A stretch of 49,604 nucleotides of DNA from a virus (IMGVR_UViG_3300045988_158846:1-49604); one strand, 5' to 3'; counted from the first letter of the stretch, positions 9,391 to 33,600 are shown. The notes: generated by a model from the letters alone, not told the origin. Made by a program: numbers and translations.

Positions 9391-9423
9391 TTAATATTAT
9401 TCTTTAATCACTCGATATCCATT

Positions 9424-10182: not shown

Positions 10183-10217
10183 TAAATCACTTCCCTCAAT
10201 TTTCAAATATAATATAT

Positions 10218-10485: not shown

Positions 10486-10514
10486 TTGACTTTGCAAATT
10501 TTTTGTGTTATAAT
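10486..10514 (+). promoter_or_regulatory. rightward consensus promoter TTGACT-17-TATAAT heading the structural module; same extended motif as 26934..26962
   Basis: 'ttgactttgcaaattttttgtgttataat'; motif ttgactttg.aaatttttt.tgttataat is shared with the second copy. Confidence 0.6.
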
Positions 10515-10542: not shown

Positions 10543-11607
10543 TTGATAAAATTAGATTATACTCTTGAAACTCCTGAAGAAAGAAATGAATTAGTAAAAA
10601 AAATCTTAGAAGAAAATCCAAATCCTAATGAAAAGTATTTAGAAATTCTTGCAGATTATCTAATTCTATGTATGGAGAAACAAGAAAAAAAAGAAAAGAA
10701 AATATTAACTGATAATAGATTAATGACAGTTAATAAGCGTGAAACTTCATTTGAAGGTCTTGTTTCCCAGTTAGAGAATGGTGAAGATGGTATATATAAT
10801 TTAATTAATAGTGATAAAAATATGATATTTTAGCCAAAAGTTACAATTACAAAAAAAGATTTAGAAGAAATTCCGAGCTTAAAACAATTAAAAGACGCTA
10901 TTACAACTTGGGAAGCAAAAATGAAAGTAGTGAGTGGTAAAGATGCTTTCACTATAAAAAAAGCCTTAATAGAAATGCGTAAAGACCAATATGTTATTAA
11001 AAATGCTTATCGGAAGCCAATAGTACCAGTAAAACTTACACGGTCCAAATATAAAATTAAGTTAGATGAAGATGTAAAAATATTTGATGATGATGGATAT
11101 CCAATTCCAGAAGGCGTCTCATTGATGAACCCTGAAATTTGCTCTTGCATTTTATGCAATTATTCTCGGTTAAAAGAAGACAGTTGGGACCGTTTTGAAG
11201 ATGATACTTGGTATCTCATCTATGATTTTGAAAATATTTGTGATGAGGCTTTGGCTGAATATCCTATGTTAATGCGTATTGTAGAATGTAAAATTGATGG
11301 ATTACAAAATATAGAAATTCAAAAAATTTTACAAGAAGAATTTAATATTACTCATAGTTTAGAATATATATCAAGTTTATTCCGCAATAAAATACCAAAG
11401 CTTATTGCCGATAAAGCTGTTGATAAATATTTAGAGTGGTATTATACAACTCAAGAAAAAGGCAAATATAAAAAATGTAGTCGATGTGGGCAAATCAAAT
11501 TAGCTCACAATAAATATTTTTCCTATAACAAAACAAGTAAAGATGGATTTTATAGTATATGTAAAAAATGCCGAAATAGTTCTCGCAAAGAAAAAATGAA
11601 ATCCTAA
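10543..11607 (+). CDS. hypothetical protein with C-terminal zinc-ribbon (CSRCG...CKKC), ~354 aa, TTG start, one in-frame TAG at 10831
   Basis: ORF-track ORFs 10486..10833 and 10921..11607 are in the same frame and joined by a single TAG; RBS GGAGG 8 nt before TTG. Confidence 0.45.
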
Positions 11608-11625: not shown

Positions 11626-12840
11626 TTGTCCAGCGAAGGTAAACAATATTATTGTGAAAAATGTAATAAAACTATGGATGGAACTTAGTTTTATACATCT
11701 AATAATTTAGATAAATATCCTAATGATGGTAAATTACCAAAATGCAAGAAATGTATAACAATGCATGTGGATAATTGGAATCCGGATACTTATTTATGGA
11801 TATTGCAAGAATGTGATGTTCCTTACATTCCTGAATAGTGGAATTAGTTAATGGGTAAATTTGCGAAAGATAGAGCGAAAGTCACTGGAATGACAATATT
11901 GGGTCGCTATCTCTCTGCAATGAAATTAAATCAATGGAAAGATTATAGATGGAAAGATAGTCAATTCTTGCAAGATTTACAAAACAAAAAAATAGAAGAA
12001 ACAATGAAGCAATAGGGGTATGATATTCAAGATATTACTACTGCTATTCAACGAGCTTCATTCTCTTTGCCGTCAGAAGAATTAAAAGAGCCGCCTCCTC
12101 CCACCCCTCCTCCCTTAGATTTTGGGAATTCTGGGGAAGATTATTTTAAAGATAAATTAGATTTTGATGTTCCTGACTTAGGTGCAGAGCTGACAGACGA
12201 AGATAAACGATATCTTTATTTAAAATGGGGAAAAGGCTATAGTCCCGATGAATGGGTACGCCTAGAGCAATTATTCAATGAAATGATGCAATCTTATGAT
12301 ATTCAATCGGCAGGTCATATTGATACATTAAAACTGGCCTGTAAGACATCACTAAAATCTAATTAGCTATTGGATATAGGTGATGTAGATGGCGCACAAA
12401 AGATGATTAAAATGTATGATTCCTTAATGAAATCGGGCAAATTTACTGCTGCTTAGAATAAAGAAGAATCTGGTGATTTCGTTGATTCTGTTGGTGAATT
12501 AATAGAAATGTGTGAGAAACAAGGATATATCGAAAGATATTATATTGATACTCCAAATGATAAAGTAGATTTTACAATTAAAGATATGTAGAAATATACT
12601 CGTACTTTAATTGAGCGAGAAACTAATCTTGGCAATATGATTGATTAGGCATTAAAACAAAACGCTAAAGAAGATAAAGAAGCCAAAGAAAACGTCGAAG
12701 ATACAATTGTTGATGATGTTGATATGTCTATTGAAGATATTGAAAAAACTTTGGAAGATAAAGATATTGAAGACTTTGGCGAATTTTTAGATAACGAGAC
12801 AGAGTTAGATATAGATGCTTTCTCTGACAGAGAAAATTAA
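11626..12840 (+). CDS. hypothetical protein with N-terminal CxxC...CxxC zinc-ribbon and acidic C-terminal half (~404 aa), 11 in-frame TAG codons; possible small terminase / packaging partner
   Basis: continuous frame from TTG 11626 (RBS AAAGGAG) to TAA 12838, containing ORF-track ORF 12067..12366; stop overlaps the terminase start. Confidence 0.45.
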
Positions 12841-14591
12841 TGGCATTACAAGACTTGCTTGACCTATCTACTAGTAGAAAAAAGATAGGTCTTTCTGAAG
12901 AACGTATTAATGCTGTAATTCCAATCATCCGTAAATATACTGCCTTTTGGCGTGAATATCCAGATTTATTTGTAGATTTTTTAGTGCGAGGAACGCGCAC
13001 AGAACCAAAAGAAGGAGAGTTTAAATTCTTTTTCTATTAGCGCGTTTTCTTACGCTGTGTTATGCGTTATCAATACGTTTATGCAGTTTTCCCTCGTGCT
13101 TATTCTAAATCATTCTTGTCAGTTATGGCATTGATGGTCAGATGTATTCTTTATCCTGGAGTCCATTTATTTGTTACTTCTGGTGGTAAGGAACAGGGTG
13201 CGAGCATCTTACACGATAAAGTTAATGAAATTTGTGATTTAATTCCCAGTTTTAAACGTGAAATTGATTGGGGTCGTGGCAAGAGCCAAGAGAGCAAGGA
13301 TAAAGTTCGCTATGTATTTAAAAATGGTTCTGTCCTTGATAACTTAGCAGCAAGAGAAAGCACCCGTGGCCAGCGTCGTCATGGTGGTTTGATGGAAGAA
13401 TGTGTAGGTATTGATGATTAGATTTTGCGTGAAGTCATTATACCAGTTATGGCAATTCCTCGTAGAGCTAAAGATGGTACAACCCATGAAGAAGAAGCAG
13501 TTAATAAATCTCAGATTTATATTACTACTGCTGGTTATAAAAATACATATCCTTATGATAGATTGATCGGCCTATTAGTTCGTATGATTACGCAGCCTGA
13601 TAGATGTATGGTATTAGGTGGTACGTGGCGAACTCCTGTCGCTGTTGGATTACAATAGAAAACATTTATTACTGACCAAAAGAATGAAGGAACTTATAAT
13701 GAAGCTTCTTTTGAACGTGAATATGAATCAATTTGGTCTGGTACTGTTGAAGATGCTTTCTTTAATGCCGAAATATTTAATAGAAATAGAATATTGAATT
13801 AGCCTGAGTATGAAGCTTCTGGCCGTTCAAGCAAGTTATCTTATTATATATTAAGTGTTGATGTAGGCCGTAGAGTATGTGATACTGTTATTTGCGTATT
13901 TAAAGTAACACCGCAACCACATGGTGAACCGATTAAAAGCTTAGTTAATATTTATACTATGAATGATACTCATTTTGAGGATTAGGCTATTAAACTTAAA
14001 AAATTATATTATAAATATAAAGCTCGTAGAATTGTAATAGATGCTAATGGACTTGGTGTTGGTTTAATTGATTTTATGGTTAAGCCATAGATTAATCCTG
14101 AAACTTCTGAAATAATTCCTGATTTTGGAGTTTATGGTGGAACTTAGGATGATGCGATTTAGGAATATAAAAAGTATAAAACTAATAGTACAGAATTAGA
14201 TGTTTTATATCTAATGAAAGCTAATGCACCAATTAATACTGAAGCTCATAGCATTACTTAGTCAGTACTAAATTCTGGCAAAATTAAATTTTTAATAGAT
14301 GAACGAATGGCTAAATAGAAATTATTAACTACTAAAGTTGGTTAGAATATGACCACAGAAGCGCGGTCTGATTATTTAAGACCATTTAGTTTAACTACTT
14401 CATTACGTGAAGAGATTATGAATTTGCGTGAAGAAAATGAAGGTTTAAATATTATTTTAAAACAAGCTAATAAAAGTATTAAAAAAGATAAATTTTCTGC
14501 ATTAGAATATGGATTATATTATATAAAAAAAATAGAAGAAGATAAAAAGAAGAAAAAATTCCGGGCTGCTGATTGGATGTTTATGAATTAA
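12840..14591 (+). CDS. terL: terminase large subunit, T4 gp17-like (583 aa), 12 in-frame TAG codons
   Basis: ATPase motifs in T4 gp17 order: Y-[TAG]-R adenine-binding position, Walker A (RAYSKS), ILHDKVNEICDLIP (cf. gp17 [13 protein letters not shown]), Walker B/catalytic (GGLMEEC, cf. IYIEDC), coupling motif (IYITTAGY, cf. IIITTTPNG), nuclease-domain Asp cluster (ILSVDVGRR); frames of ORF-track pieces 12840, 13062, 13425 and 14349 join through TAGs. Confidence 0.85.
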
Positions 14592-15053: not shown

Positions 15054-16742
15054 ATGGAATTAGAAAAAGAAGAATTAACCAGAAATGAATAGATACATAA
15101 AAAAGGTTTCGATATAACCGGCGGAACACGAGAGTATTCTGCGGTTGGGCCTACTGATTATAAAAAAATTAAAGTAGGAGTAAAAACACTTGATGATGCT
15201 GTTTTAAACCTTGGTTCATTTAGATGGGATACATATGGGCGTCGTAACGAAAAATATAGCCGTGAACGCATTTATACTAAACCAATGGTTATGGATGCTT
15301 TAATTCGTAATGATGTTTAGGAGTTACGCCGAATATCGCGTTTCTTTTTTAGAGTAAGTGGTATTTATCAAAGAGTATGTAATTATTTTGCAAATATGTA
15401 TCGCTATGACTGGGCTATTGCTATTTAGTCAAATAATACCGATGGAACTACAGTCAAGGATATTAATGAAACTAAAGCAGTAAAAGATTTCTGGCGAATT
15501 TTAAATTATTTAGATAATTCTTATATTAAGAAAATTTGTGGCGATATGGCTCTTGAAGTTATTAAATGCGGAGCTTATTATGCTTATATTGTTCCATCAA
15601 GTACTGGTCTAATTTTACAGTAGCTTCCTATTGATTATTGCCGTTCAAGATATTCTGTAGGTAATTTACCTGCTATTGAATTTGATATGAGATATTTTGA
15701 TACTTTTATAGATACTAATTACCGTAATAGAGTATTAAAATTATTCCCTGACGAATTTACAGTAGGTTATCGTCTTTATAGAGCTGGTAAGCTTTTACCA
15801 GATGTGGCTGGTGATAATAGTGGTAGTTGGTATTTATTAGACCCACAAAGCACAATTAAGTTTGCTTTAAATGGTACTAATGATATTCCATTATTTGTAA
15901 ATGCTATTCCAGCAATTTTGGATTTAGATGCCGCACAAGATTTAGACCGCCGCAAGTAGATGCAAAAATTATTAAAGATTTTAGTTTAGAAATTACCGCT
16001 TGATAAAAATGGTGATTTGATTTTTGATATTGATGAAGCTCGTGATATTCATAATAATGCTGTTGAAATGTTGCGTAGAGCTGTAGGTGTTGATGTATTA
16101 ACTACTTTTGCCGATGTAGATGCTATTGATACTTCTGATAAAAATACTTCTGCTACTACAGATGAATTAGAGCGTGTCGAACGAACTGTATATAATGCAT
16201 TTGGCGTTTCGCGCAATTTGTTTAATACAGATGGCAATATTGCATTGGAAAAGTCCATCTTAGATGATGAATCTACTATGCGCAATTTAATTTTGCAATT
16301 CAACATATTTTTTGATAGAATATTATCAGTCCTGAATGTTCAGAAAAAATATAATTATAAGTTCTATATGTTAGAAACTACACAATATAATTATAAAGAT
16401 TTATCTAAGATGTATAAAGAGCAGACTTAGATTGGTTTCTCTAAAATGCTACCTTAGATTGCTCTTGGACAATCATAGAGTTTTATTCTTAATACAGCTC
16501 ATTTTGAAAATGAAGTTCTACATTTAAGTGAAGTTATGATACCGCCTCTTATGAGTTCTACATTAAATGGTGAAGATATTTTGGGTAAAAAAGATTAGAA
16601 TAGTTCTAACACTTCTCAAAATAAAACAAGTGGAAATACCACTACTGTAAAAACAGAAACAAAAGAGAGTGGTCGGCCAGAAAAAGCTAATGATGAAAAG
16701 AGTGAAAAAACAATCGCTAATCGTCAAGCGGCTGGTAAATAA
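15054..16742 (+). CDS. putative portal protein (562 aa), ~11 in-frame TAG codons
   Basis: position immediately downstream of terL, size, acidic/Ser-Thr-rich C-terminal tail; ORF-track pieces 15687..15959 and 16017..16430 are in one frame. Confidence 0.5.
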
Positions 16743-16754: not shown

Positions 16755-18317
16755 GTGAGACATACAAGTGTTAAGTTAGATACTCCTGTTGAGTTTATTA
16801 ATATCACTAAAATCAATCCTTTAATTTCTAAATGTTAGATTAAAGTTTGTTATGTTGGTGATAAACCAAATCGCAATAGAAGTGTTATAACAAAAGAAGT
16901 TGCTAAAGATTTAGCGCAAAGTTTACCAGGTAGTCCTATCGTTGGTTATTTTAATGAAGCCAATGGTGATTATGAAGAACATAATCGTGTTATTGATATT
17001 TCTAATGGTAAATTTGATATTAAAGATACTACTGTTCCTTATGGTTTTGTAGACTTGGGAGCTAAAGTATGGTTTTAGAAATTTTTAGATGATGGAAAAA
17101 ACGAGCATGAATATTTAATGACTGAAGGCTATATCTGGACAGACATCTATCCAGAAAGTAAACGTATTATTGAAAAAGGTAATAATCAATCTATGGAATT
17201 AGATGATGAAAAAATTAATGCGTATTGGTCGAAAGATAAGAATGGAATGCCCGAATTTTTTATTATAAATGAAGCAATAATTAAGAAACTTTGTATTCTT
17301 GGAGAAGATTGTGAACCTTGCTTCGAAGGAGCTAATATTACTGCACCTACGATGCATTTCTCATTTAGTGATAAATTTAATGAGCAATTATTCTCTATGA
17401 TGAAAGATTTAAAAGAATTATTAGAAGGTAAAGGAGGAACAAAAGTGTTCACAAGATACAATGTGGAGATTGGTGATTCCATTTGGACTTCTCTTTATTC
17501 TTACATTAAGGGCTTCGGTGCTGGTAATGCAGTGATTGAAGAAGTTTGCGAAGACAATGGTAATTTATTTGCTGTTGTCAAGGAAGATGATAAGTTCGTT
17601 CGTTTAGATTTTTCTATGGAGAATGACACTTTCACTCCTGGTGAAATTTCTGGATTAACTGATTATTCTGTTTCTGAAAACCCTCAATTCGATCCTGAAA
17701 AAGTTGCAGAATTTGCGAAAAAAAAGGACGAAAAAGATAAAGACAATAAAGAGAATAATGATAATAATAAGAAAGATTCTTCTGAAGAACAGCCAAAAGA
17801 TGGCGAAAAGAAGGATGGTTCTGAAAATAAACCTGCTGATACTTCTGATGAAGAAGGAAAGCCAACTAAAGATGATGAAGAAGAAAAAAAGAAAAAGAAA
17901 GCTAAGTATTCTTTAGAAGATGTAGTTGAATATGGTTTATTAAAAGATGAGTATGCCGCTCTTGAAACTAAATATAATGAATTAGTTGAAAAGCAGACAC
18001 AGCTCGAACAAGAACTTGCTTCTCTTACTTAGTTTAAAACTGAGGCAGAAAGAGAAAAGAAGCAAGAAATGATTAATAGTTTCTATATGTTATCTGATGA
18101 TGATAAGAAAGATGTTGTTGCTAATATTGATACTTATTCATTAGATGATATTGAAGCAAAGCTTTCTATTATCTGTGTTCGCAATAAGGTCAATTTCGAT
18201 ACTAATGAAAAGAAAGAAAATGACCCACTTACATATAATATTAATAATGATGTAAATGAAGATAGCATTCCTGCTTGGATTAAGGCAGTATAGGATGTTG
18301 CGAAAACTATGGAATAA
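16755..18317 (+). CDS. putative scaffolding protein (possibly protease-scaffold fusion), 520 aa, GTG start, 4 in-frame TAGs
   Basis: Lys/Glu/Asp-rich low-complexity and coiled-coil C-terminal half (EEKKKKKAKYSLEDVVEYGLLKDEYAALETKYNELVEKQTQLEQELASL) between portal and capsid genes; RBS AAGGAGG. Confidence 0.45.
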
Positions 18318-18341: not shown

Positions 18342-19118
18342 ATGCTTTTAAAAGATATGCTTAAAGACCTAAGCGGCGTATCTGCTGTTAAGGGCGGCTA
18401 CGTTGAATATGGCTATGGTCAGGTTGAGCCTAATCATTTAAGTGCTCAGCGCACTGGTCAGATTTATGCTCAATTACCTGCTAACAGAAATATCCAGCTT
18501 CTTGAAAATGGCCAGTTTGTTAAGTATGACTATGCTGCTGGTGAGCTTGGTGAAGTTGATTTCACTGGTAAGGGCGAATGGATGTTAGTTTATAATGAAA
18601 TCAAACTTTATCGTGAGGAACAAGCTGATTGTGAATTTGCTATGCGCAAGGATGATTATCAGGCTCGTTTCTATAGCCCATACGATGGCAAGCAGGAAAT
18701 TGGTACACGCCAGGCTCGTTATCTAAATGGTAAGGATGCCGAAGGTAATACTTCTATTACTATTACAGACAGCCAAGGTGTACAACATACTTATGAATAT
18801 GACGATGTTACTGCTGGTCCTGATATTCGTGAACTCTTCTATGAAGAAGATCCTTTACACTTTGATGGTCCTTATCAGCCACGTAAAATGCCTGCGGGCA
18901 CAAACATGGTTCCTCGTGTTTTCAAGACCAATGTTGGTGATATTTTTACGACTAATACTATTGCTGAAGCTACTCTTGTAGTTGGCGATATTTTAAGTCC
19001 TCGTGCTGCTGACGGTATGCTTTCTAAGACCGGTGATGGCTCTATCCAGTGGTAGGTTGTCAAGGTTTATGAAATGCCTGACCATCAGAAGGGCGTTAAG
19101 ATTATGCGAATCGCGTAA
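18342..19118 (+). CDS. head-associated hypothetical protein (258 aa), one in-frame TAG
   Basis: ORF track 18342..19055 extended through TAG 19053 to TAA 19116; RBS AAGGAGG. Confidence 0.45.
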
Positions 19119-19135: not shown

Positions 19136-20272
19136 ATGTTAGATAGAAAAAATCTTGTTCAATTAATGAAGACTGTCGCTAAGGCTGATCCTTCTGCTCC
19201 TACTGCTTACAGCTTTAATGGCGAAAGCCTTTCTTATGATGCTCTTAATGAAACTCTCCGCAGAGAATTAAATGAACTAGCTGGAACTTATTCTCTATAT
19301 CGTGATAATAAGAACCTTATTTTCTCAATGATTGAAGAAACCATTGATGAAGTTCTTCCTAAGAAAGTTGAAGAGCAATATAATCAGTTTGCTGAAGTTA
19401 AGACGTTTAAACAGGGTGACAAGCCTATTTTCCGTAGAAAGTTCAGCAACAATACTCGTGCAAAGCAATTCATCACTCGTGTCGGCCTAGCTGGTATCTA
19501 TGAAGTATTTAAGCTTGGTAAGACTGAAGAAAGCTTTGAAGTCCGTACAAGCGCTATCGGCGGAGCTGCTCAAATTGGATTTGAGGAATTCCTTGATGGC
19601 CGTGTCGATTTTGGTGTTGTTACTCAGATCGTCATGGAAGGTATGGATGAACTTATCTATAAAGAGATTGCTGGTGCTTTAAAGGCTTCTGTTAACCAGT
19701 TACCTCCTGCTAACCGTTTAGTTGCTAATGGTTTTGATGAACCCGGTTTTGATAAGTTACTTATGATTGCTTCTGCTTATGGTACTCCTACTATTTATTG
19801 CACTTATGAATTTGCTGTTCGTATGATTCCGAAGGATGCTTGGCGTTATACTGAAGCTATGAAAAATGAGCTTTGGAATACTGGTCGTCTTGCTTCCTAT
19901 AAGGGCTATAAAGTTGTTATTCTTGAGCAGGGCTTTGAAGATGCTACTAATGAAAAGAAAGTCATTGACCCAGGTTATGCTTGGATTATTCCTACTGGTG
20001 CTGATAGTAAGCCTGTAAAGGTTGCTATGGAAGGCAATACCATTGTTGATGAATATACCAATTATGATCGTAGTCGTGAAATTCAGGTTTATAAGAAAGT
20101 TGGCGTTATTGCTATGTTAGCTAATAACATCTGCTGCTATTGTGATACTGAACTTCTTGGTGATATGAAGACATGGCATCTTGATGGCGTAACTGGTAAG
20201 GTCCGTGACTATGCTGGTCAGATTACTGGTTCTCATGATACTATTGATGGCGGTAATGAAGATAAGCCGTAA
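19136..20272 (+). CDS. putative major capsid protein (378 aa), no TAG codons
   Basis: size and position after portal/scaffold; followed by strong terminator; RBS GAAAGGAGAG; TAG-free despite recoded neighbours. Confidence 0.5.
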   Translation: MLDRKNLVQLMKTVAKADPSAPTAYSFNGESLSYDALNETLRRELNELAGTYSLYRDNKNLIFSMIEETIDEVLPKKVEEQYNQFAEVKTFKQGDKPIFRRKFSNNTRAKQFITRVGLAGIYEVFKLGKTEESFEVRTSAIGGAAQIGFEEFLDGRVDFGVVTQIVMEGMDELIYKEIAGALKASVNQLPPANRLVANGFDEPGFDKLLMIASAYGTPTIYCTYEFAVRMIPKDAWRYTEAMKNELWNTGRLASYKGYKVVILEQGFEDATNEKKVIDPGYAWIIPTGADSKPVKVAMEGNTIVDEYTNYDRSREIQVYKKVGVIAMLANNICCYCDTELLGDMKTWHLDGVTGKVRDYAGQITGSHDTIDGGNEDKP

Positions 20273-20317
20273 TTGATATTAACTAAAAATTAATATATAA
20301 TATTTTTAGGGGAGAAT

Positions 20318-20350
20318 GGGGAAATCCCCTTCTCCCCTATTTTGTTTTAT
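20318..20350 (+). terminator. rho-independent terminator (aggggagaa...ttctcccct hairpin plus U-tract)
   Basis: perfect 9-bp stem enclosing a second GC stem, followed by ATTTTGTTTT. Confidence 0.65.
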
Positions 20351-20373
20351 GAGTAAAAGGAGAATAAAAAAAA

Positions 20374-20940
20374 ATGAGTAAAAAAATTTTAATAGTTACT
20401 AATAGAAGTGCTGGAATGGTTGTTTATACTATTCCTGAAGAAGGTATCCGCAGAGAATTTACACCTGGAGAAACTAAAAAAATTCCTTTTGAGGAATTAG
20501 AGAAACTTGCCTATCTTAGCGGAGGCCGCACTTTAATGGAAAACTTCTTAAAGATTGTGGATACTGAAACTACAGAAGAATTAGGTATTCATACAGAACC
20601 TGAATATTATTTAGACGACGCTGGAGTTATTAAGCTTCTTACCGAAGGGACTCTTGATGAATTCCTTGACTGCCTTGATTTTGCTCCTATTGGAGTTATT
20701 GATATGATTAAGAGTTATGCTGTATCTCTTCCTATGAGTGATTACAATAAGCGTAAGGCTCTTAAGGATAAAACTGGATTTGACCTTGATCGAGCATTAG
20801 CCAATAAGGAAGCTGAAGCTGCAGAGGATGAACAAATTACTCCAAAAGCTCCTGAACGTAGAGTAAAGACCGAAACTAAGTCTACAACGCCTCCTGGTCG
20901 TAGAACTACTCCTCGTTATAACGTTGTAAAAGAAGGTTAA
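20374..20940 (+). CDS. hypothetical virion protein (188 aa), no TAG
   Basis: ORF track; RBS AAAAGGAGAA; Pro/Thr-rich basic C-terminus. Confidence 0.5.
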   Translation: MSKKILIVTNRSAGMVVYTIPEEGIRREFTPGETKKIPFEELEKLAYLSGGRTLMENFLKIVDTETTEELGIHTEPEYYLDDAGVIKLLTEGTLDEFLDCLDFAPIGVIDMIKSYAVSLPMSDYNKRKALKDKTGFDLDRALANKEAEAAEDEQITPKAPERRVKTETKSTTPPGRRTTPRYNVVKEG

Positions 20941-20962
20941 TTATAAATAAGGAGGGTTTTAT

Positions 20963-21574
20963 ATGACATATTTTTATAAGATTTATGAACGCTTTTTAGG
21001 CAAAGTAACAGATGATATGTATTTAGAACTTACTCCTCATGATACATTTTTAGATTTACGTCAATTGCTTGTTGATAGCATCCCTGGATTTGAATTTCCG
21101 CGTAAAAAATTAGATTATGTTTTAGTTGATGAAGATGCTCCTGATTTTATAAAAGGGGAAATTGATGGCGGAAATATTGATATACCATTAGGCGGAGATT
21201 TATCTGAAGAAGTAGCTGGCAGTAACATTGATATAGATAATGCTTTTTAGGAGATATTTTCTGAAGAAAATACCTCCTATTTTAATGCCGATTTGGATGA
21301 TGAAGAAATTAATATCTTGGCTTTGATTATGGTTGAAGCTTGGGTAGAGCGTCAATTGGCCTCTATTGAAGTAACAAGAATGAAATATTCTGGTACAGAT
21401 TTTAAATTTACTTCATAGGCAAATCATATGTAGAAATTGTTATCATTGAGAACAGAAGTAAGACGTTAGGCCTTTCATATGCAGAGATTATATAAGCGTC
21501 GTAAAACTGATGATAATGGATATATTAAATCTAACTGGTCTGTTCTAAGGGAGGTAAGTGCCCTTGATGACTAA
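20963..21574 (+). CDS. putative head-tail connector/adaptor protein (203 aa), 4 in-frame TAGs
   Basis: ORF track 20963..21250 extended through TAGs to TAA 21572; position between capsid and tail genes. Confidence 0.4.
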
Positions 21575-21860
21575 ATATAATTTTAATATAGATAATGATT
21601 TAATTAATACTAATATTAATAGATTAACTAATTAGATATGGAAATTAATTCCTATGCGTGAAAATGAAGAAGATTGGTTATCTTAGTTAAATACTGTAAT
21701 TATTGAATTAACTGGTCTTGGGGAAATTTTTAATGATAGTTAGTATTTAATTCTTTTAAGTAAATTAGAAGGACTAAAAAATATTGAAATTGAATTTCCT
21801 ATTTATAGAAAGACAGTGTTTGAAGCTATTACTTTATTAAGGGGGCTTCACATTGAATAA
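21567..21860 (+). CDS. hypothetical protein (97 aa), 3 in-frame TAGs
   Basis: ATG overlapping the previous stop; continuous frame to TAA 21858. Confidence 0.35.
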
Positions 21861-22848
21861 AAATGAATATTTAGATGCAATGTATAACCGTATTCCAAAA
21901 GCCAATATGCTTACAAGATATTTATATGGCGATGGAGTAACAGGACAGCAAGAACGAATGATAAGAGATAAACGTAAAACATTAAGTAGAGCTTTACTTT
22001 ATTCTTATCAAGCTGCCTTGGTAAAAAAATTATATGATGATAAAGATACTATTGAACGTCGTGCATTAATTAATCCTGATAAAATAAAATAGGATTACGA
22101 TGAAAAAATTATTTCAATTGGTTTTGAAAGTAATTTTAAAACTGGGGATATTTTTTAGTGGTTAGGTACAAATACTTATTGGTTAATTTATTTACAGGAT
22201 TTAACTGAATTAGCTTATTTTCGTGGTAATATAAGACGTTGTTCTTATGAAATTGCCTGGGAAGATGAAAATAAAAATTATCATAAAACTTATATTGCTT
22301 TGCGTGGTCCTGTTGAAACTAAAATTAATTATATTCAAAAGCATGAAATTAGTATAGATACCCCTAATCATTCTTTAAATATATTATTACCTTATAATGA
22401 TGATAATGTAAAATTATGTTAGCGTTATAATAAATTTTATTTATAGAATGACCCTAATAAAACATGTTGGCGTATTGAAGCTACTGATTTGTATTCTACT
22501 CCTGGAATAATTGAAATTAATGCTGTCGAGTATTATTCTAATGAAACCGCTGATGATATTGATAATGGTATTGTCAATGGTTTAATATAGCCGGTTCAAG
22601 ATCCTAATTCGGGTAAGGAGAATGGCATTATAGGAGATACTTTTATTAAGCCTAAAGTAGTATATGAATATAAATATGATGGAATTAACTCTGGCGAATG
22701 GACTTGGGATAAAAAATTACCATTAACAGTTAAAGTAAATGAAGAAACAAATACTTTAAAATTACGATGGGAAACTACATATTGTGGCTAGTTTGATTTA
22801 TTCTACGGGCCAGAATGTAAAACCATTGTAGTTGAATCTTTATTTTAA
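21853..22848 (+). CDS. hypothetical structural protein (331 aa), TTG start, ~6 in-frame TAGs
   Basis: ORF track 21853..22092 extended in frame to TAA 22846; RBS AAGGGGG. Confidence 0.4.
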
Positions 22849-22869
22849 AGATGAAGGAGAAATCGGAGA

Positions 22870-23460
22870 ATGAAAATTGATAATGTAAAAAATCCAGAGT
22901 CAGCATTTTTAGCCCAAGAAAAAGATATGAGAATTATAGTTGATCGTATGGCCGCGAATCAACGTTTGCGTAAATTACTTTATTATACTACTCCTGATGC
23001 GTTAAAAAAACCAGAAGTAAGTGATTAGAATTTCGCAAAAATGTTTGGCAAGAATATAAGGAATTTACCAAAATTATATATAGATAAAGATGTTTTAAAT
23101 TATATCGTTATTAGTTTTGATAATTTTACTCCTAATGGAGATAATCCTGAATTTAGAGATAATACTATTGAATTTGATATTATTTGTCATTATAATTAGT
23201 GGCAATTAGCTGATTCTTTTTAGTTAAGACCTTATAGAATTGCTGCTGAACTTGATAGTATGTTAGATAAAAAACATTTAACTGGAATTGGGCAACTTAA
23301 TTTCGTCGGAGCATAGCAAATTATATTAACTGATGAATTTGCTGGACTTTGTTTATTATATGATACAATACACGGAGGAGAAGATAAAAAATTTATGCCA
23401 AATCCTGCTGATGAACAAATGTTTATCGAGGATTATTTTAAAATGCCTAAGATGAATTAA
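22870..23460 (+). CDS. hypothetical protein, possible tail completion/terminator (196 aa), 4 in-frame TAGs
   Basis: RBS AAGGAGAAATCGGAGA; continuous frame to TAA 23458. Confidence 0.35.
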
Positions 23461-24194
23461 TGGATTATAAACTTAGTTTAATGTGCGGGACAGATTTACC
23501 TGTTCCAGAAATTCCATTAACTCTCCATTAGCCTAAGATAAAGGAAATAGCATTAATTGGCGAAAAAGAATTTTTTACTGGTGCTTAGTGTCTTTGTATT
23601 AATAAAAATAGTATAACAAATCAGGACAAGAATGATTTGGATACTACTACCAATTTTTAGATATTTATGATGGTAATGCTATAGAAAGATAATAATGAAC
23701 GGCGTAAAGCTGCGCAATAGGTTCTATCATTACTATTCCCAAATTCAAAGTCTACATTTACTCCCAGATCTATTATTATTCAGTATAATGAGAGCGATAT
23801 TTAGATTAATATTGATAATAATAACTTTGAATTATTTTAGTAGGTAGCAAGACAAATTTTTTGTTTTGATACTAATAAAAATGGGCAAGATAATTATAAT
23901 CCTGCTAATAAGAAAGCTCAAGAAATAGCTAATAAATTAATGAAAGGGCGTCAAAGGGTCGCTGAACTTAAAGGGGTTACCGATTCAAGCATTTTGAGCC
24001 AATACGTTTCTACATTGACTATTGGATTAGATTCAATGTCATTAGAAGATTGTATGAATTTAACATTGTATTAGTTATACGATTTAATAGAAAGATTTTC
24101 TCTTTATACTAATTGGGATATTGATGTAAAGAGTAGATTAGCAGGAGCCAAGTCAGATAAAAAACCTGATAATTGGATGAAAAACATTCATTAA
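23460..24194 (+). CDS. hypothetical protein (244 aa), ~10 in-frame TAGs
   Basis: ATG overlaps the previous TAA; continuous frame to TAA 24192. Confidence 0.35.
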
Positions 24195-24273
24195 TTTTGT
24201 ATAAATCGCTTTACTAATTTTTGTAGCGAGTTATATAAATAAAATTTAAATTTTATTAAGGAGGAAATAACCT

Positions 24274-25437
24274 ATGAAATTTGGTGTTCGTGAGATATGC
24301 GATGTCGTATTAAAAGCTCGTGCTCCTATGAAGGTTGGTAATAAAGTTTTCTATGCGAACGAACCAGTTCTTTATTTCGATACATTAAAGACTTCTAGCC
24401 TTGAAGGTGCTTCTACGACCGTATATGCACAAGGCGGACGCGGCAATGCTCGTTTAGTAGCTTGGGACGGCGACCGTACTTTAACATTCACTATGGAAGA
24501 TGCTCTTATTTCTGCAGAAGGATTTATGATTCTTTCTGGTGCTGGTCTAATTGAGGCTTCTTCTAATAATACTATTAAACAGCATGTTACTGAAAAATCT
24601 ACTGCTGTTGAATTAGACCAGGATAAGAAGAGTGTTAATATTTATACTACTTCTCTTCCTTATGAGAATGTTAATGAAAAAGGCGAATATGTTGATGATG
24701 CTGATCATTATATTTATGCTATGTTAGTAAAGAATGATGAGCCTACAACTGAACCTTACTTACCTCGTATTGAGCGTTATGAAAATGACCATAAACCTGT
24801 TATGTACCATTTAGTTGATGGTGTTTATACTAAGTATGAAAACACTGCTGCTGGTGATGTTGCTCGAAAAGCTGGTACTGTTATTTATTATTGCTTACAG
24901 ATTAAAGCAATTACTAAAACTATTTCAGCTCCTACTACTGAGAATCCAGATGCTACTAAAGAAGTAACTATTTATGATTTAGCTGATACGACTGAAGCTT
25001 ATTTAGGTTCTGATGGTAAAGAGCATTTTGTTGATGATCATCAGATTGCTAACTTTGAAAATGGCACAGTTCTTCTTGATTATTATATTGAGAAGGTAAG
25101 TAAGGTAAAGCAGATTGAGATTACTGCTGAATCCTTTGGTGGTAACTTCTATCTTGAAGCTTCTACCTTATTCCGTACTCAGGATGGTGTTGACCTTCCT
25201 GCTGAATTCATAATTCCTAACTGCAAGATTCAGTCTAACTTTACTTTCAGTATGGCTGCGACTGGTGATCCTTCAACTTTCACTTTCACTCTTGATGCAT
25301 TCCCTGGAACTACTCGTTTTAATCCTGCTAAGAAAGTTCTTGCAGCTATCCAGATCATTGAAGATGCAGTCGATTCTTCTCTATATCGTACTCGTACAAT
25401 TCATGATCCCACTCATGATAGCTATTTTGATATTTAA
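24274..25437 (+). CDS. putative major tail protein (tube or sheath), 387 aa, no TAG codons
   Basis: ORF track; RBS AAGGAGGAAATAACCT; tandem TAATAA stop and downstream strong terminator; position upstream of chaperone and tape measure genes. Confidence 0.5.
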   Translation: MKFGVREICDVVLKARAPMKVGNKVFYANEPVLYFDTLKTSSLEGASTTVYAQGGRGNARLVAWDGDRTLTFTMEDALISAEGFMILSGAGLIEASSNNTIKQHVTEKSTAVELDQDKKSVNIYTTSLPYENVNEKGEYVDDADHYIYAMLVKNDEPTTEPYLPRIERYENDHKPVMYHLVDGVYTKYENTAAGDVARKAGTVIYYCLQIKAITKTISAPTTENPDATKEVTIYDLADTTEAYLGSDGKEHFVDDHQIANFENGTVLLDYYIEKVSKVKQIEITAESFGGNFYLEASTLFRTQDGVDLPAEFIIPNCKIQSNFTFSMAATGDPSTFTFTLDAFPGTTRFNPAKKVLAAIQIIEDAVDSSLYRTRTIHDPTHDSYFDI

Positions 25438-25438
25438 T

Positions 25439-25606
25439 AATGGTTATCAATTCGACAGCTCCAAAACCTATTAAAAAAAATCAAGAGCAGAAGAAAGTTA
25501 TAATTGAAGAATCTAAGAAAAATGTAAAAAAGATTATAAAATCTAAAGATGCTCCTCTTACCGAAGATGAGCTAATTGAAAAAATCATTAAAGGAGAGGG
25601 TTAATC
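25439..25606 (+). CDS. small Lys-rich protein (55 aa)
   Basis: own reading (MVINSTAPKPIKKNQEQKKVIIEESKKNVKKIIKSKDAPLTEDELIEKIIKGEG); its 3' end forms the stem of terminator 25591..25623. Confidence 0.3.
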
Positions 25607-25623
25607 CCTCTCCTTTTTTTTAT
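25591..25623 (+). terminator. rho-independent terminator (aaggagaggg ttaa tccctctcctt plus 9-nt U-tract)
   Basis: seen directly. Confidence 0.65.
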
Positions 25624-25645
25624 TATGTGAAAAAGGAGATATAAT

Positions 25646-27038: not shown

Positions 27039-27566
27039 ATGGCAAAATTGGCATTTTCCAAGCTTACACTTCAAAAAAACTCTTAGGTAAAAGAATGGAG
27101 TTTTAATGAGCAATCTATTGAAGTAAAGCAGTATTTGTCTATTAAGGAAAGAATGGATATTGCTTAGTCGGTCATTCAACAAGTCATTGATTTTAATAAT
27201 GAATTTTTGAATGAATTTGCTTTCCATATGTATATGGATTTAGCAATAGTATTTAATTATACAAATTTATCTTTTACTGATAAGCAGAAAGAAGATTTGT
27301 ATAAACTTTATGATTTACTTGTTGGATCAGGACTCATGAAAGAATTAAAGAAACAAGTAAATTGTAATCAAACTGATGATTTAGAAGTCTATACTTATGA
27401 AATGCTTAATGGATATTATAAATATCATAATAGTGTTTATGGGATTATGGATACTATAAATCAGAATTATTCTAATTTAAATTTAGATGTTAATGAGCTA
27501 CAAGATAAGATTTCTAATCCTGAGAGTCTATCTTTAGTAAAAGATATTTTAACCAAGATGGGTTAA
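27039..27566 (+). CDS. putative tail assembly chaperone (175 aa), 2 in-frame TAGs
   Basis: position immediately upstream of the tape measure gene; RBS AAGGAGG; ORF track 27207..27566 extended upstream through TAGs. Confidence 0.4.
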
Positions 27567-27603: not shown

Positions 27604-27636
27604 AAAAGGCGAGAGGCTTTGTTCCTCTCGCCTTTT
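27604..27636 (+). terminator. rho-independent terminator (aaaaggcgagagg...cctctcgcctttt)
   Basis: 12-bp GC stem followed by CTTT; between chaperone and tape measure genes. Confidence 0.55.
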
Positions 27637-27680
27637 CTTTATATATATAGAAATTTATAATGAGAGAAAGGAGCTATTTT

Positions 27681-30600
27681 ATGGCTAATAACAGTGCTAA
27701 TTATAATGTTAATATGCGATTTACAGCTGATACAGGTCAGGCTAAATAGCAATTACGAGATTTACAAAGTTCATTAGATACTTTAATGAATTAGATAGCA
27801 ACAAAAAATGTTAAATTTTTTGATGTTAATGCCACTAAAAAAGAAATAGATGAAGCCTCAGCGGCGGTTTAGGAATTAAAAATTGCTTTAGATTAGGCGA
27901 CTAATGTTAATACTGGGCGTTTAGATTTATCAAAATTTTCAAAGAGTTTAAGTTAGAGTGGCTATACTCTTTAGGATTTTGCTACGCATTTAGAGAACTT
28001 AGGTCCAACAGGTGATAAAGCATTTGTTGCATTAGCATAGTCTGTTATTAATGCTGAAGTTCCTTTAAAAAGAACTAATGCTTTATTAGATAATTTTAAA
28101 AAGACATTAGCTAATACAGCCAAATGGCAAATTTCATCTAACTTAATGCATGGAGTATAGGGTTCTTTATAGAAAGCTTACTATTATGCAGAAGATTTAA
28201 ATAGATCATTAAATGATATTCGTATAGTTACTGGATAGAGTAATGATTAGATGGCTGAGTTTGCTGAAAAAGCTAATAAGGCTGCTCAAGCATTAAGTAC
28301 AACTACTACTAATTATACTAATGCTTCTTTAATTTATTATCAATAGGGTTTAAGTGATAAAGAAGTTGCTGATCGTACTGAAGTTACTATTAAAATGGCT
28401 AACGCCGCAGGTGAAAGTGCTTCTAAAGTATCTGATTAGTTAACTGCTGTTTGGAATAACTTCTATGATGGTAGCAAATCTCTGGAGTATTATGCAGATG
28501 TAATGACTAAACTTGGTGCGTATACTGCTTCTAGTACTGATGAAATTTCAGAAGGTATATAGAAATTCGCATCTGTTGCTAATACTATTGGTCTTAGTTA
28601 TGAATATGCTACATCTGCATTAGCTACATTAACTGCTAAAACACGTGAAAGTGCGAATACAGTAGGTAATAGCCTTAAAACCTTATTTGCTCGTATTTAG
28701 GGTCTGACTCTTGGAGAGACTCTTGAAGATGGCACTGATTTAAATAAATATTCTAAAGCCCTTGAAAAAGTTGGCATTAGTATTAAAGACCAATAGGGTG
28801 AGTTAAAGGATATGAATACTATCCTTGATGAAATGATGAATAAGTGGGATAGTTTAAGTCGTGCTGAATAGGTAGCCTTAGCTCAGACTGTTGGTGGTGT
28901 TCGTCAGTATACTCAATTAGTTAATCTTATGGAAAATAAAGATTATTTTAAAGAGTTAGTTGGAGTAGCTAAGACTTCTGAAGGCACATTACAAGAGCAA
29001 GCTGATATTTATGCTGAAAGTTGGGAAGCTTCTAAAAAGCGTGTATAGGCTTCTCTGGAAGAAATTTATAAACAATTAGTTAACGATAAATTTTTTATTG
29101 GGTTAAATGATACATTAAGTGATACAATAAATCTTACAAGTAAATTAATTGATTCATTAGGTGGATTGCCTGGGATATTAAGTGTTGTTTCCGCTTTAAT
29201 GTTAAAGAGTTTTGGTCCTGATATTGTAAATAACATGTAGCGTATAGCTTCTAATTTATTTATTGATAGTGGAGCTGCTTAGAATCAGGCGGCTGTTATG
29301 AAAAAATAGATGTTAGAAGCTTTAAATGCTTTTAACCCTAAAGCTGACCCTCAAGATATGGGAGCTGTTGAATTTTAGACTAAAAGTTTAATTGATGCTA
29401 CTTAGCAATCTTATGATTTACAAATGGCTTCTAGTAAATTAAATGAAATAGATTTATAGAGATTAAAAACTTTAAAGTCTATTTCTGATTAGTATGCTTA
29501 GATTGCTATTAGAGCTAAAGAAGCGGCTGATGCTCAAACCACTCAAGTAATTGAAGCAAGACAAACTGGATTGGCTGCTATAAGATAGTTATCTAAGAAA
29601 AAAGGCGGCGGGGATAAGGGAGTCTTAGCAGCTGAAAAAGTCTTAGATAGTGGTTAGAAAGTTATATCTAATTTTAATGGATTAATGAATTTAGATGTAA
29701 CTAAAGGGACAAAAACCAAAGATTTAGTATAGCAAGTTCAAAGCCTAAAATTAGTAGGTGATGAATATAAAAAACTAAATGGTTTAGCTAATAAATATTC
29801 TCAAACTTAGAGTAAGACTGTAGCAACATCATTTAGAAATGAACTAAAGAATCTATAGAAAGAATATTGGTCTGGTGGAAAAGCTATAGAACAATTAACT
29901 AAGCAAACTGATGCATATATAGACAGTTAGGTAAAAGCTAAAAATATTAGCCAAAGTGCTGGAGATATAATTAAAACTATTATGAATGTTCTTAATGGTT
30001 AGGCTATAAAATAGGGAGAAGCGGCTAGGGCCACTAGAGAACATAGTAAAGCTATTGACGAATTTAATAATACATTAGCCCGTAGCCAAGGAGCTGTAGC
30101 TACTTTCTCTCAAGGTTTAGTTACATCAGCCCAAGGAGCTACATCTATATTAATAGCAATTAATAGCATCAAAAGTGCTTTAGAAACTTTAAATAACGAA
30201 GATTTAAGTTTTGGCGATAAATTTTTATCTATGATGACTTCAATAAGTATTGCTATTCCTGCTTTGATCAGTGGATTTAATTCTTTAGCTACAGGTATTC
30301 CATAGATGGCTAATAATTTTAAACTATTGGGCAATAATTTGGTATAGCTGGCTTTAGGAGTTAGTGAATTAAAAGGAGCTAATATTGATGAAGCTATTCA
30401 AGGGTTAGAGAGTAGTGGAATAAAAGCCAAAATTTTAGAAAGTATGAGGTAGGCCATTAAGAATACTACTACAGAGACAACTCACTTAGCTGGAGCTGAA
30501 TTAGCAGCCGCATAGTCTTCCGCAGCTATGTCCGCTGGGTTTAAAGCTTTATTGGGGAGTATTGCTCCTGTGGCAATAGGATTAGCTGCTGTGGGAGTGG

Positions 30601-33600
30601 CTATTGCTGGCCTTATTGCTTATCATAATTGGAAAGAAACTTTTAGTGTTGAAGCTTAGATTGAAAGGTCTAAACAATCTTTATCAGAATTTGAATCTAT
30701 TTTATCTGAGACTAAGACAAAAGCTGAATAGTTAAAATCTGTTTTTAATAATTATCAAGAAGTGACAGATGCTTTAGATAAATGTACTGTAGGGACGAAA
30801 GAATGGCGAGATTAGTTAGCTAAAGCTAATGAAGAGGCTCTTAATATTTTAGATACTTATCCTGAATTAAAAAATATAGAAGGAGCTTGGTCTAAAAATA
30901 GCAGTGGTCAAATTATTATCGATGAAAATGCTTTAAATCAAGTTCAAGACATTTATGATTAGCGGGTAGCTGCTGTAGATTATGCGATAGATTATTAGAA
31001 AGCAAAATTGCAATAGTTAAATGTTCAGCAATTGGGAGAAAATTTTGCTGAGAGTAATTTACTTGGAGTAATGCAAAATCATGGTACAGCTTTTCCTAGC
31101 TTGACTATAGATACTTTAGGTCGATTAATTGCCGAGAATATTGATTTATTTAAAGATGCTGATGTACAAGAATTTGCTAATGGCTTAGAAACGGTATTTG
31201 ATAAGGCTGGTATATTATTTAATAATCCAGAAGATTTAAATGGTTAGAAACAAGAATTTGAAATGTTAGCTTACTAGATTTTAAATGATAGTGAAATAAC
31301 TGACGGACTTGATTAGTTAGTTAGTGCTTTATTGGATAATACTGATGCTACAATACAAGCTTCTAAAGAAAGTAAAATTCAATAGGGGCTTGGGAAAGAA
31401 ACTATGGAATCTGGCGAAGTCACATTTACTTCTAATTTCATGGATGCTGCTATTGATGAAAAAGTTAGCAAAATTTTAAAAAATAATAAATTTAATTGGA
31501 CTTATACTGATCCTACTACTGGAAAAGAATACACTGAAGCCATTGGTTAGACAGGAATTAATAAAAATGATAATAATGTAGTATTAAATGATATATGGAA
31601 ACGTTATTCTTAGATTGCTGGTTTTGATTATGAATTAGATAAAAATTCAGTATAGGGAACTGGAGCCAATAGAGCATTTAGATATAGAGATGCTGATAAT
31701 GAAGTACAAACAGTATCTTTTGAAACTGTAGCAAAAGCTTTAGCTACAGTAGAAGTTTATGCTAATGCTTTAGAAGATAGTTATGAAAAAGCAACAAATT
31801 TTTAGGGATATTTAGATGGTACTGGGAATAATACTTATTTAAAAGATGAACAATTTAAAGGTGCATCTTCTGACACTGGCAAAAGTATTTTAGAATTCTT
31901 AGGAAATAAGGGAGACTTATCTGGTTTAAATAAAACTTAGTTAGAAAATTATAATAGAGCAATTCAAAATCTTGATGAAAATACTTTTAATAATTTAATG
32001 TCTAATGCTCTAGGATATGGTAATTATACTGAATTAGATGATGCATAGTTAAAATAGTTCACTAACCAATTAACTAATTTATATAGCGAAGTTGGCGTAA
32101 CAAGTTTTGATGCTTTTAAAAGAGCTTTTGGTAATGAAGTAAAAAGTGATAATGGTTAGTCTGAAAAAATTTTAGCAGATAATTTTTTTGCTCATTTATT
32201 AGAAGCAGCTAATACTTAGATTGCTGGTTTTGATTAGTTTGCTGTCAATATATAGTCTAAATTATCAAATTTAGTTAAAGATGTTTTTAAGACTGCTGGA
32301 TATGATGGTGTAAATGCTTTAGTTGAAGCTATTAATGCTAGCGGGTCTGATATTACATTAGATCAATTAGATTAGATTGAAAATATATTTAAAACATCTT
32401 CATCAATTGATGATTTTATTAAATAGTTAGAAAAGTTAGGAGTAGTAACTGATGAAAGTAAAGATGCTTGGGTTGAATATTATAATAAATTAATTGAAGC
32501 TGGAAATAATTTACCTATTACTTAGTTTGAGAATTTTAGACAAGTTTTATCAGACATTTTTTCTTTATTAAATGGTAAAATAGGTTCTGTTATTTCTCAA
32601 GAGGATATAGATAAATTAGAAAAATTTGGAATTGATTGGCAAAAATACTTTGTTTAGACTGGACCAGATAAATATACTTAGACTCAAGAATATTCTACTG
32701 ATGATAAAAATAAATTTTTACAGGGTTCTATTAAAACTATTGAAGAAAATGGGCAGATGGCTCAAGAAAAAGAAGAAGCTTGGAATAATTTTAAATATAC
32801 TGATAGCCAAGATAATGAATAGACTTTTGATAGCTCTATTGAAGCTATGAAAAATGGTTCATTGAAAGATTCTAGCGGAAGATTATTAGATGAAGCTATT
32901 CATATTTTTGGCGGAGTAGATAATTTAGCACAATTTACTTCATTAAATAAAGATAAATTTGATAAAGAAGCTTATTTAGCAATGAGTGAAAGTGAAAAGG
33001 CAGATTTATTATAGATTATATCTGATGCTTTTACTTAGAATAAAGATTATGTTAATCAAGTATAGTCTAGTAAATAGGAGTTTTATTCTAATGCTAATTC
33101 TGTAAAAGAATTAAGTTAGATGGATGGATTTAACATAGGAGATGAAGCAAGTTAGAAAGGATTGCGAGCTTGGGCAGCCAATAATCAAGACATTGAAGGG
33201 GTAGTTAAAGCTTTAAGTAAATTAAATTTAGAATTAGAAAAAGCTAAAGATGATCCAATTAAAGCTAAAAAAGCATATGAAGAATTCTTTAAATCATTAA
33301 GAGATGCAGAAGTTAAAGAAACTATTGATGAAATTAAAGATATTAAAAAAAATATTCAAGAATTAGAAAAAGATGGAAAAGATTCCACTTCTGAAATTAA
33401 CAAATTATATACTAAGGTTAAAGAGTTATTTAATTTAAGCGATTCTGATTTAGAAAAAAATAAAGGATTAGTTGATAAGTTTTTATTTGGTAATGCAGAA
33501 GAATCTCAAAACGCTGGAGAAGAATTAGAAAAAATTAAACAACAAGGAAAAGATATAGGAACTGCTTATGGAAATGCAATTGTTGGAGCGGCTCAAAGTG

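Follow-up and report, generated by a model that had tools for sequence, protein, structure and literature searches.

Our results support a model in which TAG, reassigned from stop to glutamine (Gln), is a poor synonymous codon that translational selection purges from high-copy virion genes. The DNA in question, referred to below as the window, is a 49,604-nucleotide stretch of viral sequence (IMGVR_UViG_3300045988_158846:1-49604). It is the late module of a long-tailed, TAG-to-Gln recoded gut phage whose sequence similarities make it kin to phAss-1 and to the Enterococcus EF1 and Bacillus Tsamsa phages. A previous reading of the sequence alone had pointed out that two genes of this module, those for the putative major capsid and major tail proteins, contain no TAG among heavily recoded neighbors, and had proposed either selection against dependence on suppression in proteins needed in hundreds of copies or expression before suppressor activity accumulates, in both cases as a code-based timing or dosage mechanism. 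We find that the depletion is real, that it is shared by many related phages, and that it is part of a broader codon bias. We put the probability of the selection model at about 0.75.

The argument depends on the identity of the reassigned codon, and both reading frames and alignments indicate that TAG is a Gln codon in this phage. Coverage by long open reading frames (ORFs) is 56 kb when TAG is taken as sense, as against 25 kb under the standard code. When TAG was masked during alignment to standard-code relatives, Gln was the majority residue at 36 of 63 window TAG sites, with glutamate as the runner-up (7/63).

With start codons picked by ribosome-binding site, the module contains 22 late genes (12337 codons, 272 TAG). 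Four of these are TAG-poor: the candidate genes for the major capsid protein (MCP) and the major tail (tail tube) protein, and the two genes on either side of the capsid gene, 18342..19118 and 20374..20940. The remaining 18 late genes (11122 codons, 271 TAG) served as the comparator set. In this set, TAG makes up 271 of 554 Gln codons (0.489), and a beta-binomial fit collapses to a plain binomial, with no gene-to-gene overdispersion. The four genes, in contrast, use TAG for only 1 of 37 Gln codons (joint P = 5.9e-10). A recount agreed with the sequence-only reading that TAG is absent from the capsid and tail genes (0/11 and 0/9 Gln codons) and that 18342..19118 is mostly free of it (one TAG among 16 Gln codons). 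Given a rate of 0.489, the single-gene probabilities are 6e-4 (capsid), 2.4e-3 (tail), and 3.5e-4 (18342..19118). The fourth gene, 20374..20940, does lack TAG as described, but it is uninformative within the window because it has only one Gln codon. The probability of finding no TAG in the capsid and tail genes together is 6e-9 per codon, at a recounted rate of 2.4% (271/11122) rather than the 3% first assumed, and 1.5e-6 conditional on Gln number. Chance and low Gln content were both ruled out as causes by the tests conditional on Gln number.

Comparison of CAA and CAG with TAG gene by gene confirmed the depletion. The TAG:CAG ratio is 1:26 in the four genes and 271:38 in the other late genes (Fisher P = 3e-20), and in-frame TAG is 30-fold rarer (0.27 vs 8.1 per kb). 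Outside the reading frame, TAG is reduced just 2-fold in these genes, matching their lower A+T content. The contrast between frames places the effect in decoding and not in a DNA motif. The flanking genes are indeed rich in TAG, although with lower counts than first reported: 11 rather than 12 in the terminase gene TerL, 10 rather than 11 in the portal gene, 9 rather than 10 in 23460..24194, and 109 rather than 130 in the tape-measure protein (TMP) gene. Density per gene, originally given as one TAG per ~20 to 50 codons in flanking genes, spans 1 in 26 to 1 in 130 codons across the comparator set.

The depletion is conserved well beyond this one genome. Searching IMG/VR with the capsid protein as query yielded 80 loci (72-99% identity), 58 of them recoded and 22 standard-code, and orthologues were assigned to 16 families by BLAST of ORFs called with TAG as sense. 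In the recoded relatives, TAG accounts for 7 of 696 Gln codons in capsid genes (1.0%; TAG-free in 51/58), 8 of 455 in tail genes (1.8%; TAG-free in 41/47), 2.9% in homologues of 18342..19118 (58 relatives), and 6 of 323 (1.9%) in homologues of 20374..20940. The twelve other families range from 14 to 64%, and seven of them are never TAG-free. Complete absence of TAG, as the sequence-only reading would have it, is nonetheless not a conserved property, as 7 of 58 capsid and 6 of 47 tail genes of recoded relatives contain it. The distribution of these exceptions is informative. Capsid TAGs fall in 6 alignment columns, of which 5 are singletons, and tail TAGs in 4 columns, all singletons, with mean frequencies of 0.02-0.03, compared with 65 columns in the portal gene and 53 in TerL at a frequency of ~0.15. 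That nearly all are singletons implies that new TAGs do appear in these two genes but are not retained, which is a pattern of purifying selection. We rejected sequence conservation as the cause, since the tail gene and the two capsid neighbors, at 51-55% identity, have diverged as much as the TAG-rich genes have. The depletion spans deep divergence (other genes are ~50-60% identical) and reaches phAss-1, which belongs to a separate genus. There, the capsid gene has 0 TAG, 15 CAG, and 0 CAA, the tail gene has 0 TAG and 12 CAG, both capsid neighbors and the scaffold-position gene have 0 TAG, and other late genes have 1-25.

TAG avoidance is one component of a general codon bias. In relative synonymous codon usage, the four genes differ from the other late genes in their shares of GCT (0.83 vs 0.62), CGT (0.65 vs 0.37), CTT (0.51 vs 0.14), AAG (0.61 vs 0.16), and TTC (0.44 vs 0.13), with CCT at 0.80 in the four genes, and in their avoidance of ATA (0.04 vs 0.27), AGA (0.15 vs 0.37), and GGA (0.13 vs 0.37). 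In absolute terms, no codon shifts more than TAG (0.03 vs 0.49 of Gln). Capsid and tail genes favor C-ending two-fold codons (AAC, ATC, TTC, TAC) together with CGT, GCT, and CTT, and avoid ATA, AGG, CGG, and GGG; such preferences are the classical signature of translational selection. The four genes do not simply resemble the leftward genes of the window, a possibility that we discarded because their codon usage correlates less well with those genes (0.49) than with the other late genes (0.70).

The same bias is present where TAG still means stop. In the 22 standard-code relatives, CAG makes up 0.5-0.72 of CAA plus CAG in the same four genes and 0.16-0.36 elsewhere, and the four genes are again richer in G+C. 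We therefore derived a log-odds bias score that excludes Gln codons, trained on capsid plus tail genes against bulk genes in standard-code relatives only. Across the 16 families of the recoded relatives, this score is strongly correlated with TAG/Gln (Spearman rho -0.95, P = 3e-8), and the correlation persists when the four depleted genes are left out (rho -0.88, P = 1.5e-4), with the scaffold-position and chaperone-position genes intermediate on both axes. Standard-code relatives avoid ATA in their capsid and tail genes (log-odds -4.2) at least as much as recoded ones avoid TAG there. Because the bias pre-exists in standard-code relatives and predicts TAG use, it points to ordinary translational selection and not to a dedicated code-based mechanism. 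The earlier description of the pattern as a code-based timing or dosage mechanism was thus overstated, whereas its proposal of selection against TAG in proteins needed in hundreds of copies fits the frame-specificity of the effect, its retention in 58 relatives and phAss-1, and the genes on which it falls.

In the model we favor, TAG would probably be read by a phage-encoded tRNA with anticodon CTA, more slowly or less reliably than CAG or CAA. A+T pressure would let TAG drift to about half of the Gln codons in most late genes, mainly by CAG-to-TAG change, CAG being the only synonymous codon one substitution away from TAG; in agreement with this route, CAG has collapsed in ordinary late genes (38 vs 271 TAG) and has been retained in the four genes (26 vs 1). 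In the few genes with products required at several hundred copies per virion, selection would retain CAG and remove new TAGs. The genes under such selection would be those for the capsid and tail-tube proteins, the one that immediately precedes the capsid gene and, in relatives, also the one that immediately follows it, and the same selection would favor NNC codons, CGT, GCT, and CTT and disfavor ATA, AGA, AGG, and GGG. The cost of a TAG is likely to be kinetic, to arise from termination, or both. As for copy number, a tape measure of 3091 residues should correspond to a tail of ~450 nm and hence to several hundred tube subunits, and related contigs of 157-189 kb should correspond to a capsid of many hundreds of subunits. 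The TMP gene bounds the penalty: with 109 TAGs, 99% read-through per site would complete about one third of the chains and 95% only ~0.4%. A gene with so many TAGs implies that late read-through is nearly complete and that the per-codon penalty is small, and small penalties would be visible only in the most expressed genes, which matches the observed pattern.

The MCP candidate shares 49% identity with an ORF of phAss-1 (OQ749652), 41% with Enterococcus EF1-like phages, and 25-26% with ORFs of the Bacillus phages Thrax1, Thrax3, and Kirov that carry the annotation "major capsid protein"; a homologue in nr (DAG86643.1) is annotated likewise, and one capsid homologue belongs to a metagenome-assembled genome of the Bacilli. 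A profile of 55 diverse sequences from a representative library found no match in the PDB, and an AlphaFold model based on a shallow alignment (90%-cluster database, at least 80% identity) reached a predicted local distance difference test score of 45.5. The tail candidate matches proteins that in Tsamsa-like Bacillus phages are annotated "major tail protein" or "tail tube protein," and its model is confident only in a central inserted beta-domain (residues ~90-290). In the closest relatives (L001, L002, L004, and L046), the capsid protein is 94-99% identical and the tail protein ~70%, with 1-2 TAG in the tail gene; this difference in identity suggests that the tail gene was exchanged or has diverged rapidly, mainly in the central beta-domain. 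Searches with 18342..19118 gave no informative PHROG or Pfam family and no PDB profile match, and Pfam and PDB profile searches with 20374..20940 gave no match.

All four genes share strong ribosome-binding sites and a G+C content of 0.37-0.42, compared with 0.26-0.33 in the other late genes. Both of the TAG-free genes named by the sequence-only reading are followed by terminator-like hairpins, as it had stated, but a third hairpin, of equal or greater strength, lies just before the TMP gene. Among distinct relatives, such structures were present after 93% of capsid genes, 46% of tail genes, and 100% of the homologues of 27039..27566, the gene that precedes the third hairpin, and were essentially absent after the 13 remaining gene families compared. 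The gene 27039..27566 itself has low TAG use and intermediate codon bias, and the combination suggests that its product may also be made in large amounts.

Several points weigh against the selection model. The high expression of the four genes is deduced from function, copy-number arithmetic, ribosome-binding sites, and terminators, and the high copy number of the products of 18342..19118 and 20374..20940 is a prediction. The capsid and tail-tube candidates themselves rest on annotated homologues and gene order. The decoding tRNA poses a further difficulty, in that the window contains no tRNA gene and none was found in the ~9 kb past its left end, as seen on contigs with identical proteins. 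A tRNA(CTA) does occur in the tRNA arrays of six recoded relatives in the clade, in contig 119030 (outside the 80 loci), and in phAss-1, but an exact 22-mer search found it only in relatives with 77-78% capsid identity and not in the closest ones. Finally, the relatives share ancestry, so that pooled counts overstate the number of independent events; in mitigation, many different TAG columns were counted among them. A scan for the tRNA region with phAss-1 NrdD as query returned only Phassvirus contigs. In the recoded relative L156 (IMGVR_UViG_3300045988_110853), a tRNA with anticodon TCA (7726-7805; tRNA-SeC according to ARAGORN) adjoins the CTA suppressor and tRNAs for ATA (in L147) and AGA, two codons that are common in ordinary late genes and avoided in capsid and tail genes.

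Several other models would also place TAG preferentially outside the capsid and tail genes. We consider it unlikely that TAG count sets the yield of each protein, or delays it until the suppressor saturates, with late transcription coupled to suppression in addition through the sigma-like gene at 10543-11607. If this were true, stoichiometry would be fixed by TAG number, with none in the capsid and tube genes, ~10 in the portal gene, and ~110 in the tape-measure gene. The putative regulator is the first gene of the rightward module. It matches phrog_5767 over residues 31-346 (E 1.3e-52) only with TAG read as Gln, and no Pfam sigma domain was found in it. Its homologues carry 1-7 TAG in 47 of 47 recoded relatives and 0 TAG in 22 of 22 standard-code relatives. 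A promoter scan of the window gave 94 sites where 101 were expected by chance, and a divergent consensus pair near 10.4-10.5 kb, next to this gene, stands out. If the sigma-like gene is a late regulator, late transcription itself would depend on suppression, and even TAG-free late genes would have to wait for it.

A related version, in which TAGs are placed adaptively in low-copy genes and each loses a few percent of chains to termination so that TAG number sets stoichiometry, seems to us improbable. Read-through of ~95% over 109 TAGs would reduce TMP yield ~270-fold, near the expected TMP:capsid ratio, and the genes whose products should be most abundant have the lowest TAG/Gln, with intermediate values in the scaffold- and chaperone-position genes. 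However, TAG/Gln is homogeneous at 0.49 over 18 genes, alike for the portal protein, with 12 copies per virion, and for the long tail proteins. This homogeneity means that TAG number tracks gene length times Gln content and not the required copy number. Moreover, TAG columns are poorly conserved (mean frequency 0.15), as for drift and not for tuned sites.

A model in which timing is the cause fares no better, and we likewise give it little credence. Here, the TAG-free genes would be translated before the suppressor builds up, so that capsid and tail proteins accumulate ahead of the TAG-containing assembly proteins. The leftward and presumably early genes are TAG-free, and recoding as a timer of late genes is an existing general model (Borges et al. 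preprint, 10.1101/2021.08.26.457843). The capsid gene is separated from the preceding TAG-containing genes by gaps of only 17-24 nt, with no terminator upstream of it; if it is co-transcribed with them, its translation would still be independent of the suppressor, but such tight linkage to TAG-containing genes cuts both ways and we do not count it as evidence. Against timing, the same bias exists in standard-code relatives, where code-based timing is impossible, TAG use is graded with codon bias and not on or off, and single TAGs are tolerated in some relatives. Capsid subunits made without the TAG-containing portal and scaffold proteins would presumably lack a base for assembly, and the putative regulator contains TAG in every one of the 47 recoded relatives, so that, should this gene control late transcription, none of the TAG-free genes would be expressed early. 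Timing is thus not required to account for any of the observations and has no positive sign in its favor: the bias occurs without recoding, varies by degree, and allows an occasional TAG.

It is also possible, but doubtful, that TAG is purged mainly because truncated subunits co-assemble and poison lattices, with speed and ribosome cost secondary. TAG does show the largest absolute shift of any codon, and the affected proteins probably form large homopolymeric lattices. On the other hand, ATA, which cannot truncate a protein, is avoided at least as strongly in standard-code capsid and tail genes, and the graded correlation persists in genes whose products do not form lattices. Poisoning would be a sub-mechanism of translational selection and is not exclusive of it, and it may contribute. 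Finally, recent acquisition of the TAG-free genes from a standard-code relative, with TAG not yet accumulated, is very improbable: the higher G+C of the four genes, the existence of standard-code relatives with 82% identical capsid proteins, and the mosaicism hinted at by the ~70% identity of the tail gene to its closest relatives would all suit such a history, but the pattern in 58 recoded genomes and phAss-1 would require repeated, gene-specific imports, the bias score puts the four genes on a continuum with other late genes, and their codon usage is closer to those genes than to the leftward ones.

The features discussed here are listed in the table. The window is divided into bases 1-10227, which carry small leftward genes (G+C 0.37-0.43, G+C at third codon positions 0.39, CTG frequent), and a single rightward module from ~10.5 kb to the window end (G+C 0.26-0.33, third positions 0.16) with strong Shine-Dalgarno sites. 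The split in composition is sharp and lies at the divergent promoters at ~10.4-10.5 kb. In-frame TAG is absent from the 19 leftward ORFs taken as genes and occurs 272 times in the rightward module. Two leftward ORFs lengthen if a single TAG is read through, 4820-5443 (-) and 9397-9705 (-); the first comprises 4820-5056 and 5066-5434 in one frame with TAG between them, which could be two TAG-ending genes or one recoded gene. The leftward genes include nucleoside deoxyribosyltransferase-like and deoxyribonucleotidase-like proteins.

The rightward module shows PHROG matches to TerL, an HNH endonuclease, the portal protein, and "virion structural proteins," and its gene order is that of Tsamsa, including a 3123-aa tape measure (gp226). 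The HNH-like gene is present in 80 of 80 relatives at ~82% identity, which marks it as a constant component of the packaging module rather than a mobile insertion. The scaffold role of 16755..18317 and the tail-chaperone role of 27039..27566 are suggested by position only. The gene at 25646-26926 was found in only 11 of 80 relatives (~30% identity) and is probably a variable accessory insertion; its TAG/Gln is 0.64 in relatives, the highest of any family, and also 0.64 in the window, where two short genes are higher.

Table. Features of the window discussed in the text, in order of position; coordinates count from the first base.
Feature	Coordinates	Strand	Details
Divergent promoter	10431-10403	-	Perfect 12/12; faces the promoter at 10486-10514
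Consensus sigma-70-type promoter	10486-10514	+	Ahead of 10543..11607
PHROG "sigma factor"-like gene	10543..11607	+	First of rightward module; one in-frame TAG at 10831
Terminase large subunit (TerL)	12840..14591	+	PHROG match; TAG 11/22 Gln
HNH/homing-endonuclease-like gene	14680-15036	+	Between TerL and portal gene; 2 TAG
Portal protein	15054..16742	+	phrog_2739, E 8.6e-75; TAG 10/22 Gln
Scaffold-position gene	16755..18317	+	phrog_3313 (unknown function); TAG 4/13 Gln; 0.22 in relatives
Head-module gene, TAG-depleted	18342..19118	+	1 TAG (at 19053), 4 CAA, 11 CAG; capsid-like codon bias
MCP candidate	19136..20272	+	379 codons; 0 TAG, 4 CAA, 7 CAG
Terminator-like hairpin and T tract	20307..20350	+	14 bp, G+C-rich; after capsid gene; region minimum free energy -29.5 kcal/mol, z -3.9
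TAG-free gene	20374..20940	+	phrog_30998 (unknown function); 0 TAG, 1 CAA, 0 CAG
TAG-rich gene	23460..24194	+	Directly upstream of tail gene; TAG 9/17 Gln; 0.54 in relatives
Major tail (tail tube) protein candidate	24274..25437	+	388 codons; 0 TAG, 1 CAA, 8 CAG
Terminator-like hairpin and T run	25590..25625	+	11 bp; after tail gene
Variable gene	25646-26926	+	426 codons; between tail-gene terminator and chaperone-position gene; no family match
Chaperone-position gene	27039..27566	+	phrog_30570 (unknown function); TAG 2/12 Gln; 0.14 in relatives
Terminator-like hairpin	27604..27645	+	13 bp; third, equally strong; after 27039..27566, just before TMP gene
TMP	27681..36953	+	3091 codons; 109 in-frame TAG = 47% of Gln; position and size as Tsamsa gp226

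Translational selection on codon choice in strongly expressed bacterial and phage genes was reportedly described by Sharp et al. in 2005; the present case differs from the classical one in that the synonymous set includes a former stop codon. Reassigned stop codons are rarest in the most expressed genes of the ciliate Oligohymenophorea sp. PL0344 (PMC10553269) and the rhizarian exLh (PMC5304391), which was attributed to less efficient decoding or to stronger selection to keep canonical codons (PMC10553269, PMC5304391). The window follows the same rule, since TAG supplies 49% of the Gln codons of ordinary late genes but 0-6% of those in the capsid gene, the tail-tube gene, and their neighbors. 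Unlike these eukaryotes, however, the organism is a virus whose host presumably terminates at TAG, so that a phage tRNA would compete with release factor 1, and the highly expressed class consists of a few virion genes, as we infer, and not of ribosomal protein genes.

Recoding of stop codons in the late genes of gut phages is well established (Ivanova 2014; Yutin 2021, PMC7886860; 10.1101/2021.08.26.457843; Peters 2022, PMC9523058), and those studies emphasize, as a timer, that recoded stops are enriched among structural and lysis genes; the Borges et al. preprint (10.1101/2021.08.26.457843) makes no mention of capsid genes. The phage studied here resembles those phages in its bipartite genome, with leftward genes compatible with the standard code and a structural module that needs TAG as Gln, in the tRNA(CTA) of its relatives, and in the existence of close standard-code relatives. 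In contrast to those surveys, the depletion described here lies inside the late module and is explained by a codon bias that predates recoding. Phage phAss-1 (proposed Phassvirus group; OQ749652) also reassigns TAG to Gln and encodes Sup-CTA tRNAs (PMC10607447). Among its marker proteins, TerL and TMP were reported to contain TAG, and the exemption of other genes was not discussed (PMC10607447). Its authors proposed Eubacteriales as hosts (PMC10607447). It belongs to the same broad family, with the same gene order, a 49% identical capsid protein, and TAG as Gln, but it is G+C-richer and less heavily recoded than the window phage, and its scaffold-position gene is TAG-free. The capsid gene of a crAss-like phage with amber reassignment "shows no alternative codon usage," which was suggested to reflect pressure to match host translational preferences (10.64898/2026.08.21.746148); that remark concerns a single genome from an unrelated viral order, without statistics, a tail gene, a standard-code comparison, or a gradient. 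The pattern in the window is thus a well-supported new instance of a known rule, and a clade-wide quantitative demonstration appears not to have been published previously for phages.

Our findings have implications both for the understanding of recoding and for its detection. They portray the recoded stop of a phage as a normal, if inferior, synonymous codon that is used smoothly less as expression rises, which tempers the view of recoding as mainly a regulatory switch. With table 11, Cook et al. could recognize the capsid gene in 407 of 715 code-15 genomes, and with table 15 this number rose to 475 (PMC11210395); our results explain why code-15 capsid genes are often intact under the standard code; capsid-based markers will accordingly under-report recoding. 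Codon usage of this kind also offers a cheap, sequence-only predictor of high-copy virion genes, which here predicts 18342..19118 and 20374..20940. For engineering, the 109-TAG gene sets a bound, since it implies read-through close to 100% late in infection.

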